Shown piece after piece: positions 26,401-32,400 of a DNA stretch of 64,000 nucleotides. A program made the translations under genes and the position numbers. The DNA is from Trichinella spiralis (lineage: Eukaryota): assembly GCF_000181795.1 (NCBI RefSeq), contig NW_003526943.1, positions 11,398,007 to 11,462,006 on the forward strand, in the 5' to 3' direction. Position 1 is the stretch's first letter, and every line of letters begins with the position of its first letter. Under the pieces are notes generated by a model that was given only the letters and a program-made list of their open reading frames with translations, did no database searches and was not told the DNA's origin.

Positions 26401-29400
26401 CCAGCGTTATGCAGTTGATGCCAATAAATGTTAATATGCAAAAGTCAAACCATTTCTGCTGACTCAAATAAACGCACTGAGCACGAAATTTATTTTTTGG
26501 CATGAAAATAAAAAGTGAAGCATCCATACGAGTTTGAAACCAACTTTGTTGGAACCACTGATGAAATCTAGCCACCAGTTGCGCTTTCAACTAAATGTAT
26601 TTATTTCACTTACAAAAGCAAAAAAAAAGTATTAAAAATAATTATATAATTACGGATTTTTTTCTTTGTCGTAAAGCAGTATTTAATTGATTGACCTCAT
26701 CGTGAATAAAAAGTGGACTGTTTTGAAGCAAAGCTTCTTTCTTCTGACCATCACCAATCAGTGACAGTCGATATCCGTGAATTTTGCAGTATGGATAGAA
26801 GATATGAGGATTTACTGACGAGTAAATCTGTTGAGATAATTGAGATGACACTTTTCGTGGTGAAAATTCTACTTCACTTTGCATCATTACGCTGCCGTTG
26901 CACTGATTGTTTGTAGACGCATCAGTACTCATGCTTACAGGTTCTTGTTGTGACGATTCAAGACTAAATCATTACACATATTCATTCATTCATTCATTCA
27001 TTCATATGAATAATTATTCTTAGCAGTTGCAATTAGAAATCATTATAGAAAAAAGAATAACTAAAGCTAAAAACTTTAAATATCTGTAAATGAATTTATT
27101 TTTTGGAGAAAAAACGAAAAAATGCTCTATAATCAAGGTATCAGTAATAATTTAAATCATGAAATTTGTGATTATCTGATGCCTCTGAGCAATATGCAAA
27201 CCTTTTGTAACTTGATGTTGCGACACTTTCAGTGTTTGTATTAACGCAAGAATAGAAGGTGGTTGTGCTAGACGATGATGACCAGTGACGTCGAAGACAG
27301 CTTCCACTTTTTGTATTTGGGATGTCCAAGTATGTTATCGACTGCTGGCCAGTAAGCTTTCTTTTAGTCTGTCCGTCACGATGAGAACCAGCCTTGTAAA
27401 GTGGATGAGATTTTACAGAAATTGTCGAATTGCTCTGCAAATGCTTTTACGTTACTTAATTAGGAAAATCTATCGAATTTGCATACCATTGCATTTGAAT
27501 TTGGTAAATAAAGTGAATTTCCATTGCTGTGATCGTTATTTTGATCAAATTTAGAGCCAGACTTTCGGCAGTTTCTAGCAGAAGGAGAACTCAGGACGGG
27601 ACTACCAACTGGAGTTGGTAACGTCTGAATTATAGGAGGCGGAGCGTTCACTAACTCTGATCCAGAAACGTAAACGGGCATTATAGGCAACGAAAGTAAA
27701 CGATCTAAAGCAAATATCAGAAAGCATTAAAACATTTGACAGCCAATCTTATGATCTTATCTATTAGCATTATCACTTGGCTAAAAAGATTAACAAATAA
27801 ACTCTGAGATGAATTAACTCTGGTTAACAGTTAATAAAATATATAAAACCTCTACTTCGGCTGGACAAAAGAGTTGCAGTCGCAACACCAGCGGCGCAGG
27901 TGCATGTAATTGCTGATTTCTCTCCTTTTTCATTTCCACTTTTGTACACTTCAAACATATTTTCCTTGGCTTTCGTGGAAGGATCAATTTCAGTTTTATC
28001 AATTTCTTCTTGCATCAATCGCCGCTCTTCCTTAAATGTAGACTTTCTATGTAAATGTACTAATCTTAAAACTGAATAGATGGATGACATTAAGAAATAT
28101 TAAGAAACAAAATTATTCTACTAAACCCAACCTTCAAAATAACAATAAACCTTAATTAGTCAACTACAGAACTTTCGCAAGTTTTTCAAGTTGTTAAATA
28201 AAATTTGAATAATTATTTAATAAAGCAATCATTGTATTATAAATGTTTTAATAAAATGAAGCCAAATGGAAAATACTCACCGCCTTGCTTTCTTGAAATC
28301 CTTCAACCAGGATAGCAACAAGTAAATTGAACAAAACATAGTTTCCAAATGTCATGAGTGCTATAAAGTAAAGGGCAGACCAAGGCGACGTTTGTGCCAT
28401 GCCGTTGAAAAGTACAACATTCCAGTCTTCTTGTGTCAAAATCTATTTTAAACAAAAATGTGCAAAAGCGTCATAGTTAGTCATGCATGGAAAATGCATT
28501 TAAAAGTGATTTAACCGAAACAAGCTTTGGTGCATAAAATAGATAAATTCACGGGTGATTTAGTTTAGTTCAGTTCAATCTTTTTCGATACGCCAAAACA
28601 CGCACGCAAACAAAAATTCTAAAAGTGATTCAATCTAACACTTCTATTGCTTACATTGCACTGTGATGTAATTGACTGAAGTAAAGAAAAAATTGAGAAA
28701 ATAAGCATCTGAAGATGCTCCAAAATGTCATAATGTAAAAATGCAGAAAAATATTGAGACAGAGTAAGAGAGTCCTGAAACCGCTTACCTGAAACACTGT
28801 GAAGGCTGCATTGATAATGGTATCGAAGTTACGACGAGGGCATTTGCAGGCTGGAATCTTGGATTTACAATGACATGGTGTACCATCAGGCATCTGGCAG
28901 AAACGCCCGGCAAACAATTCCATTCCCAACAGACTGAATTTAAACAACACACAAGTGCTGAATAACGTATGGAGGCCATTTTGAAATTTTTTTAATTACA
29001 CAATATCCATTTTTATTATTTGCTTTGAAAGAAAAATATACACACTACTTTGACACCAGAAATTTTATATTGCCTTTATTCTAAATCTAATATATGCAAT
29101 GGTGCTTCATTCCACAACATCTGTGAACTGTGAAGCATTCCGCAAATAATACGATAATGTACAACATGAACATCATACAGATAAAAAATAGCTAATTTTA
29201 AAGTTCTCCATTAATCATGAAACATATTAGAGCCACATTCAATAATTAACCTTATGCAAAACTATACAGATTCTTCAAAGTAAATGGAAAAAAGCATCCA
29301 ATGTAACACATATTAAAAAATAGTGCAAACCAAAAGTAATAAATGAAGATTTATGAAACATGGATAATGCCTACTGTAGTCAAAACTTGCACCTCCTCTT

Positions 29401-32400
29401 TAACATTATTCCAACAGTAGAAGATTAAATTTTATTGTAAAAGCACAGAATTTTAAAAACTGCCTTCAAAATTTTGACTATTTGATTACTATTACAACAG
29501 ATTGTTTTTACCATGAATAATTTTGCTTGAACTTTACAAGCTAACTGTAAAAGTTACCGGAGGAGCATCTCTTGTTGAAAATGCAATTGTTCAATAAATA
29601 AGTTTTAAGAACAATTGAGTAACAAAACCAAAATTATGAACTGCTAAGTTATGATTGGTAGAGTTTTGAAATCAACAGCAATATTGGTTGGTACACGGGT
29701 GTTTTCCTACTCATCCTTGTAACTATTTACATAAATAAATGCAAAAGAAGAATTATAGAAAAAGCAATCTACAAAATAGTATTTTAAGCAACGCGTTTTG
29801 GCGTATCGATTGAATGAGAGGAAGCTGAACTTCAGATTAATTGAAAATTAGCCTAACTTCAAGATGCACATTGCTCATTTGTATTTTGCTAACCTGAAAG
29901 ACGGTCAGCGTTGCCCAAAACAACGAGTCGAAGTTTTTACGGTCGCACGATTTCACAAGCTCTCCGTCGGCAGTCATTTCTTGCTTGCAAAATTTGCAGC
30001 CAAAGAGATTCATCCCCAGAATGCTACAAAACCAAATAAACAAAATAAACTTACAAACTTATGCACTGATTTCAAAATATGAAAATATTATCTAATAAAA
30101 TTTTCAAGATCTACTACAAAAAATAATCACATATTTGTCGAAGAGCTGGTATTTTAATAATGGACATTTCCAATGGTAAAGCATAGCATAAATATTTACA
30201 AAGACTTTTCGAAACTGGATATGAGCAAAATATCATCAGTATTAACCTCTAAAAATGATCGTCTCATAACAAAATATTTTTTGATTAACACTTCACTTCT
30301 AACTGTTGAAGTTTTTTCTGCTTATATTGAAGAAATCATAGTTTACGATGTACCTTAAAAGATAACTCAAATGATCAGCATAAATAATGCTTTAACCTAA
30401 AACTGTTCTCATTTTGAAACTTTAAAATGCATATTGTTATAATGATTGAATTAGTATTTTCCAAAAATGACACTGCGTTTGTTTATGGATGAAAATCAAA
30501 TGTATAATAATAAAATTCACTGCTCATTGTGACTACCGGTAACAATGGTCATGCAGCTATTTTATTTGTTAAACTCATCTCAAGTTATTCATTTGCATAC
30601 TAGCAACTTTCAATATATAAGAGTGAAGACTTCTAGTAGTGTATGTGCCCATATCATTTTGGAAGTTATCCAAACGTCCTAATGCTGTGGAATCTGCTAA
30701 ATCGATATATTTATTCATTATCACTTCTTTACTTTTGACAGGATCAATTATTCATTCTTTATGCCTTATGAACAAGCTTCGTCTATTAATTTTCAGCAAA
30801 GTTATGTTTGATTAGTTAGCAAAGTCCAATTTTACGTCTGAAATTTTACGTGCGGCTTGAACCAATTTAAAAATTATGCAAGAAAATATTCAACATTTTG
30901 TCTATTTATAATCGAAAATTTCAACATCACTATGAATTATATACCTGCAGAACGAGAGTCACTGATAACATTTTACCTACACTTTTTAAAAGTGATGCAA
31001 TGGAAAACTTTATGACAAGGTGAAAATTTTTTTCATTTTAAATTTCGTCAGAAATTCTTTAAAATAACAGCCAAAAAAACAACCAGCAACAGCAGCAGAA
31101 AGCAGATAGATATACAAGCAAGCATAGCACGTAAAACAAATTAATTAATTGTTCGTCAAGAATAAAACGGTAATGAAAATGCTTTTACACGTAACAGAAC
31201 ACAGGAAGCTACATTAAATTGGTATGAAAAGCGATAACGCATACTAAATTAAAATAAATTTTTAAACAAATAAAAATCTTGTAAAAAGCGGTCAAGTCAA
31301 TGCAGTTAATGAAAATGCATGTATACTATTTTTCAACTTTTATCAAAACAAGCATACAGCATGAATTATCATACAAGCACCAACTACAAAGACAAAAGGC
31401 AATGTAGAACTATAACTGCTTACAACACTATACAATGGTAACATTGAAAAATGGCAAAGTCAATTTATTTTAATAAAGCAACTAATATCTAATAGGCAAA
31501 TAGTATAACGCTTTCCGACTTACCTGAAGATGAATATAAACAAACAAAGCAAGCCAAAGAATACAGTAACGTTGTCCATTGTGCGTAGCATGACAACGAG
31601 CTGGTAGCGCAGAGCTGGCATAAAACGAACCAACTTTAATATACGAAGAAGTCGAAACGTCCTTAAAACGGAAAGGCCACCGTTGCCACCTTGTAAGAGC
31701 TCCATAATGCTTAAAAGAAAAGAAACTTGTATTTATTTCTGATAGATTTCATTTGGGTCAATAATGTAAATTTCAAAGTATTTTCAAAGATTTCATTTAA
31801 AAAAGAATTATTTTAAAAACATAAATTATTCAATTTTAACAAAAAATTGACCAGATATTTTTGGTGCATAAACAAAACTAGATGCAAATTCATGTTGCTA
31901 CCCTGATAAATAAATATGCATACTTTATTCAAATATATTTTACACGGCTTACTATTATTATTATCATTATTATTATGCATGTGTAAAAATAATTAATAGA
32001 ATGATTATGTAATAGAACAATAATTTATCGGAAAAATTTGCTCATCAAACATTTGCTGATCAGAGAATTTAGAGTTTTCCATTTTCCATTATTGCAATTA
32101 AAGGGAGTTGGCATAATTTACAATAACGTGTCAGATAGTGGCAGTTGAATTTCATGAAAAAGGATAATTTTTGTTGTATAATTTTATAAAATAATATAAT
32201 TTTACAAATCAATTGTAAAATGTGAACAGTAAATTGTTTACATACCTGAGTATTACTATACCCCCGTCAAAAAGGTTGAAACCGTTGCTGACATAAGTAA
32301 ATGGTCCATCTGCGATTATTTTTAATGCCATTTCTATCGAAAATAAAGCCGTAAAAAATACATTGCTATATTCAAGGATAATAGTCAATTCTTCAGGCTG

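Follow-up and report, generated by a model that had tools for sequence, protein, structure and literature searches.

The stretch of DNA analysed here (the window) comprises 64,000 nucleotides from Trichinella spiralis (NCBI RefSeq assembly GCF_000181795.1, contig NW_003526943.1, positions 11,398,007 to 11,462,006 of the forward strand) and carries the gene for a T-type (Cav3) channel on its minus strand, at approximately 23600-39200. The element under study is a pair of complementary intron segments, termed arms A and B, that flank exon 12b of this gene and are predicted to pair in the transcript. Most exons of the gene were 95-100% identical to a T. spiralis model, and exon 12b showed 100% identity to Trichinella proteins in 3/3 matches. 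The features concerned are given below in the order of transcription (the slash marks the exon-intron junction).

31524..31708, minus strand: exon 11, constitutive; domain II S3-S5; donor CAG/GTAAGT
29894..30023, minus strand: exon 12a, 130 nt (3n+1), donor CAG/GTTAGC; turret with three cysteines; DRKNFD motif, with K
29791..29809, minus strand: arm A, selector-like, 19 nt, 84 nt 3' of exon 12a; perfect core 29795-29809
28789..28933, minus strand: exon 12b, 145 nt (3n+1), donor CAG/GTAAGC; turret with five cysteines; PRRNFD motif, with R; within the loop closed by the arms
28585..28603, minus strand: GU-rich docking-like arm (arm B) of 19 nt, 185 nt 3' of exon 12b and 142 nt 5' of exon 13; perfect core 28585-28599
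28476..28487, minus strand: UGCAUG, then ACUAAC; ~35-45 nt upstream of exon 13 and not within the loop
28281..28442, minus strand: exon 13, constitutive; domain II pore helix and filter, TQEDW, S6

The tandem arrangement of a short three-cysteine and a long five-cysteine exon between exons 11 and 13, the hallmark of protostome Cav3 exons 12a/12b, is present at this locus, and the exons, their order and their three-/five-cysteine turrets are those described for invertebrate Cav3 in the available parts of two earlier articles (PMC7382465, PMC9694082). The Cav3-12a and Cav3-12b peptides of Trichinella are printed in the supplement of PMC7382465, and the exons themselves are previously published rather than new. 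As computed from the window, inclusion of 12a or 12b singly keeps the reading frame through exon 14, and inclusion of both or neither leads to a premature stop. Gene models containing only 12a (P0123, P0134) or only 12b (P0133, P0136 and others) exist as annotations. Agreement with the U1 consensus is 7/9 positions for the 12a donor and 8/9 for the 12b donor. In C. elegans, the orthologous mutually exclusive pair is formed by cca-1 exons 18a/18b, both of which are 3n+1 (130/151 nt); the pair is partly dependent on nonsense-mediated decay (NMD), and RNA pairing is not mentioned in the available part of the article (PMC4165533).

Inverted repeat and predicted helix around exon 12b

The initial annotation of this DNA described a perfect 15-nt inverted repeat with GC-containing arms in otherwise AT-rich introns, extended to about 19 bp by G-U pairs. 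The repeat was confirmed at 28585-28599 and 29795-29809. On the transcribed minus strand, 29809-29791 and 28585-28603 form an uninterrupted 19-bp helix with two G-U pairs. The arms have a G+C content of 53% versus 29% and 32% for the two introns and contain 4/9 and 3/8 of the CpGs in their respective introns; only two comparable CpG clusters were found elsewhere in the 7829 nt of ten Cav3 introns. The two positions without Watson-Crick pairing are G-U on the transcribed strand, where the duplex reaches -31.6 as against -27.2 on the other strand (weak evidence). The spacings, which had been put at ~84, ~190 and ~140 nt, measured 84 nt from the 12a donor to arm A, 185 nt from the 12b donor to arm B and 142 nt from arm B to exon 13. 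Arm A lies 857 nt from the 12b acceptor, and the loop closed by the helix, which had been estimated at ~1.2 kb, is 1187 nt long and holds exon 12b. An 11-nt direct repeat is located on both sides of arm B (28498-28511 and 28618-28630, minus strand) and has no other copy in the window.

Comparison with shuffled introns, which had been proposed together with the initial annotation, yielded a stacking energy of -36.7 kcal/mol for the real helix versus -18.2 +/- 2.1 kcal/mol in dinucleotide-shuffled intron pairs, with 0/300 as strong; after masking of simple repeats, the count was still 0/60. Among minus-strand helices of the window with loops of 30-2000 nt, it ranks as the strongest, and none of 30 block-shuffled windows contained its equal. 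When 23 Cav3 exons were tested, using approximate intron ends, a flanking helix of such strength was found only at 12b (z -10.2; the other 22, -2.1 to +1.4), which belongs to the sole exon pair of the gene known to be alternative. The inverted repeat is real, and it stands out for both its statistical strength and its placement. The probability that such a helix brackets 12b by chance was ~0.003-0.004, and that it brackets 12a or 12b 0.013-0.019, both calculated post hoc for a background of 2-3 such helices.

A somewhat unlikely alternative is that the repeat is a neutral accident or repeat remnant, and that the exon is chosen by RNA-binding proteins on linear motifs, with exclusivity enforced by NMD. 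The two further strong helices in the window fit this explanation, as do UGCAUG and ACUAAC directly before exon 13 and the frameshift that follows double or zero inclusion, taken together with the partial NMD dependence of cca-1. It is opposed by the low post hoc chance of a helix around 12a or 12b (~0.01-0.02), by the lack of a third copy of the 15-mer within <=3 mismatches on either strand of the 64-kb window, and by the absence of a target-site-like duplication at the outer ends of the repeat beyond a 2-nt TT. A transposon with terminal repeats was rejected because a loop that contains an ancient exon cannot be a single inserted element. Moreover, helix and protein regulation can coexist. 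A search of 28200-31800 with the covariance models of Rfam 15 returned no match at E up to 1.

Folding of the region 28400-30060 (1661 nt) gave pair probabilities of 0.83-1.0 for the 19-bp core. Two shorter helices had been reported to flank it:

29825-29831 with 28567-28573, minus strand: 7-bp side helix, predicted pair probability 0.60-0.67
29810-29814 with 28574-28578, minus strand: 5-bp side helix, predicted pair probability ~0.1

Both sequences are present, and the 7-bp helix is plausible, whereas the 5-bp helix is weak. Over 23500-39300, each arm is the best partner of the other by a margin of >11 kcal/mol, and the next-best partners (-22.6 and -24.3 kcal/mol) lie far from the exon cluster. 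No second selector competing for arm B was detected among the best partners across the gene. An upstream stem between intron 11 and intron 12a-12b was likewise not found, with 59/300 shuffles as good (z -0.4; uninterrupted helices only), and intron 11 formed no unusual helix with intron 12b-13 (197/300 shuffles as good). Local hairpins near the arms were not significant (z -0.6 to -1.5), including one that overlaps the 5' end of arm B (z -1.5, 16/200). Since neither a second selector nor an upstream stem was found, the element is one pairing and neither a competing docking/selector set nor a bidirectional set. The geometry originally put forward, with the docking-like arm behind the last variable exon and the selector-like arm behind the upstream variable exon, was retained.

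The single pairing could also form and have its main role elsewhere: in back-splicing of 12b to a 145-nt circle, as an ADAR-edited or protein-bound duplex that tunes the exon ratio, or as a scaffold that accelerates excision of the region irrespective of the exon chosen. Complementarity between flanking introns favours circular RNA and attracts ADAR. The strong predicted pairing of the arms fits such functions, as does the failure to find a competing stem that would make a binary switch. However, both arms are intronic, so the helix is not a recoding editing structure, and 19 bp at a distance of 857 nt from the 12b acceptor would probably be short for efficient circularisation. We consider a main role of this kind improbable.

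Conservation in Trichinella and at distant Cav3 loci

Several Trichinella gene models contain both exons, joined by a short translated intron piece, and in four of them (three labelled T. pseudospiralis, one with an incomplete label) the intron-derived peptide spans arm A. The gene models compared were 15/37 members of the main protein cluster, to which a second look-up of the cluster added none; a peptide comparison of this kind is blind to synonymous changes and covers arm A only. With frameshifts taken into account, 0/7 codons were changed in arm A and 9/24 in the flanks (longer form), two of the latter being indels (one-sided p 0.065; 0.063 with two other intron pieces pooled, 14/39). The peptides thus compared suggest conservation of arm A in T. 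pseudospiralis, and the fact that the arm is unaltered at constrained positions in these models speaks against a neutral repeat. The T. pseudospiralis models also place acceptor-like sites directly at the 5' border of arm A and 15 nt ahead of it (29810-29826, minus strand). These sites are probably prediction artefacts, but a cryptic acceptor may lie next to the helix.

For comparison with distant loci, metagenomes were scanned with an exon 12a alignment; 224/431 pattern matches were confirmed and the best 80 kept. None of the matches was confirmed in viral contigs (0/98) or prokaryote genomes (0/102). Both exons were found in 17 of the best 80 loci (13 after merging of near-identical ones), and the remaining 63 lacked 12b in the DNA examined. 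No Trichinella- or Trichuris-like locus was among the metagenome relatives kept. As judged by protein likeness, L003 is nematode-like, L001 springtail-like, L029 Daphnia-like and L075 bee-like; L061 could not be placed, and eight loci of one group are presumably rotifers.

Uninterrupted helices between the two introns of 16 loci gave z values of -2.2 to +0.9. When bulges were allowed (12 distinct loci; positive control, the Trichinella window, z -15), L016 was the sole outlier (z -3.6, 0/40), and its close relative L015 lacked the helix; for L029, 0/8 shuffles were as good at z -1.8. The (GT)n/(AC)n pairing in L075 and the microsatellite pairing in L029 were gone on masking and were rejected; the second intron of L075 is incomplete. 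A low-complexity 21-bp purine/pyrimidine helix in L075 (~9863-9883/10445-10465) survived masking (-34.1, z -7.4, 0/15), but its geometry differs from that in Trichinella in that it brackets 12a, and it was seen at one locus only. L029 has a GC donor after 12b. The introns of eight related loci aligned too poorly to allow an analysis of covariation.

The conserved arms that had been sought in other protostome Cav3 genes were therefore not recovered: an equivalent helix is absent from the 13 distinct non-Trichinella loci with both exons. Because these distant loci gave no equivalent, the sequences compared indicate that the helix is not a general protostome feature, and it looks lineage-specific. 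Such pairings can be clade-specific, according to the available part of a study on Drosophila srp (PMC4691838), so their absence in distant loci limits the reach of the finding and does not refute it.

In the introns flanking 12b of L002, L006, L009, L013, L015, L016, L017 and L023, linear motifs recur despite the poor alignment. The word TGCTTTC(G/A)AT occurs in intron 12a-12b of 7/8 of these loci, and UUGUUGU runs and UGCAC words are also present. As judged from their recurrence, these motifs may be candidates for protein-binding regulation of exon 12. Together with the retention of both exons by 13 loci without an equivalent helix, they are the contribution of the distant loci to the explanation by linear motifs and NMD. 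In Trichinella, the UGCAUG and ACUAAC elements before exon 13 are presumably an RBFOX-type site and a branch-point or STAR-type site, respectively. UGCAUG adjoins 11/29 mutually exclusive clusters of C. elegans, as reported in the available part of PMC4165533. A UGCAC-containing 10-mer has three copies in the window, all on the sense strand of Cav3, at 31860-31869 (before exon 11), 28526-28535 (before exon 13) and 26045-26054 (in an exon).

Upstream of Cav3 and on the same strand, a SUN-domain gene and a mitochondrial-carrier gene are located at 57500-62400 (minus strand). The Trichuris suis model P0006 combines all three domain types (Cav3, SUN and mitochondrial carrier) in one protein, suggesting that the annotation is fused and that the gene order is conserved. 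Downstream of Cav3 lie a V-ATPase B-like gene at 13900-16000 (minus strand), whose ATP-synt_ab match does not reach the curated cut-off, and a DUF5648 gene at 21300-22840 (plus strand). Elsewhere in the window, a 19-bp plus-strand helix (1812-1830/2966-2984, -37.1 kcal/mol, 1135-nt loop) surrounds a 311-codon minus-strand open frame without a Pfam match, and a 16-nt perfect GC-rich inverted repeat (11817-11833/12199-12215, 367-nt spacer) is situated in a 326-codon plus-strand open frame, also without a Pfam match.

Proposed role in exon choice and its consequences

The 19-bp pairing around 12b likely forms a long-range RNA helix that favours skipping of 12b and use of 12a (probability roughly 0.6). 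Pairing of arm A with arm B would confine 12b to the 1187-nt loop and shorten the distance between the 12a donor and exon 13 from 1451 nt to ~226 unpaired nt (84 + 142). This closer placement would help the slightly weaker 12a donor. Use of exon 12b would follow if its recognition precedes formation of the helix, which is conceivable because arm B is transcribed only 185 nt past the 12b donor, or if a protein or local hairpin keeps one of the arms open. Transcripts with double or zero inclusion would be cleared by NMD, and a second, competing stem would therefore not be needed.

Several observations weigh against this role. The difference between the two donors is slight (7 versus 8 of 9). Opening of local structure costs 6.2 kcal/mol for arm A and 9.1 kcal/mol for arm B. 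The window contains two further helices of about this strength (11817/12215 and 1812/2984), which is more than the shuffles yield. The arm A signal in the gene models is not significant and comes from probable gene-prediction artefacts, and its flanks are fairly conserved themselves. The failure to find an equivalent helix at the distant loci counts in the same direction, as does the intervening intron of cca-1, which is only 97 nt long versus 960 nt for intron 12a-12b in Trichinella, as given in the available part of PMC4165533.

A bolder version, in which the single non-competing helix acts as a regulated kinetic switch for the pore turret and toggles a sodium-carrying current in a Nav-less animal, is unlikely. 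In this version, a protein bound to the GU-rich arm would open the helix, or 12b would be recognised fast enough to outrun it.

Among known systems, the helix resembles stem II (Us-Dd) of Drosophila srp exons 4.1/4.2, as described in the available part of PMC4691838. In both cases, a mutually exclusive cluster consists of two exons, the distal exon is looped out, and the arms lie between the two exons and before the next constitutive exon. In srp, the splice site of the proximal exon is the weaker one; in Trichinella, this is so only to a slight degree. Disruption of srp stem II abolishes the upstream exon and compensation restores it, with the pairing aiding weak splice sites by proximity (PMC4691838). 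In contrast, srp also has an upstream stem I, which is conserved across Drosophila and was tested by compensatory mutation, and for which no counterpart was found around the predicted Trichinella helix. The positions of a docking-like arm after the last variable exon and a selector-like arm after the upstream variable exon are shared with 14-3-3zeta, Mhc and MRP1, in which, as far as the available text of PMC6071210 goes, several selectors compete for one docker and the organisms are insects; in Trichinella, a nematode, there is one pair.

No mechanism for the splicing of Cav3 exons 12a/12b is given in the available parts of PMC7382465 or PMC9694082, and the term 'secondary structure' has 0 matches in that of PMC7382465. 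No report of RNA pairing at Cav3 exon 12, or of docker-type pairing in a nematode, was found in the open literature as covered by titles and the starts of abstracts, with subscription papers outside this scope. As far as the sequence comparisons indicate, the helix most likely represents a new case, specific to this lineage, of a splicing mechanism that is already known.

The initial annotation had further proposed that the helix sets the Na+/Ca2+ selectivity of the channel. In the snail, a lysine in 12a versus an alanine in 12b (K1067/A1078) switches ion preference, and all nematode 12b exons are stated to be neutral at that site, according to the available part of PMC9694082. At the corresponding site, Trichinella 12a has K, and Trichinella and Trichuris 12b have arginine. 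Among 85 12b peptides, matched by motif to K1067/A1078 in a redundant set, 36 were neutral, 30 carried K (mostly arthropod) and 19 carried R, all of the latter from Trichinella or Trichuris models; 12a- or vertebrate-type peptides carried K in 67/72 cases. Trichinella accordingly departs from the pattern of K in 12a and a neutral residue in 12b that characterises the snail/C. elegans-type switch, and the trichinellid arginine contradicts the statement in PMC9694082 on nematode 12b. The claim on selectivity is weakened by the arginine of Trichinella 12b at a site that is neutral in the snail and C. elegans exons, and the functional consequence of the helix is less certain than originally put forward. 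Taken by itself, the residue does not decide the matter, because human Cav3 also carries K at this site, yet is calcium-selective.

The reach of the finding is limited because the helix looks lineage-specific; such a helix would not explain the regulation of exon 12 across protostomes. Independently, exon 12b of the trichinellids, with its arginine, raises a point against the published rule that can be tested, and the 19-bp element itself offers a precise and cheap test. The kinetic-switch version, if true, would be the first described case of RNA-structure control of Cav3 exon 12 and, within the literature searched, also the first pairing of the docker type known from a nematode. With the 19-bp element, RNA pairing as a control of mutually exclusive exons would extend from insects and mammals to a nematode.

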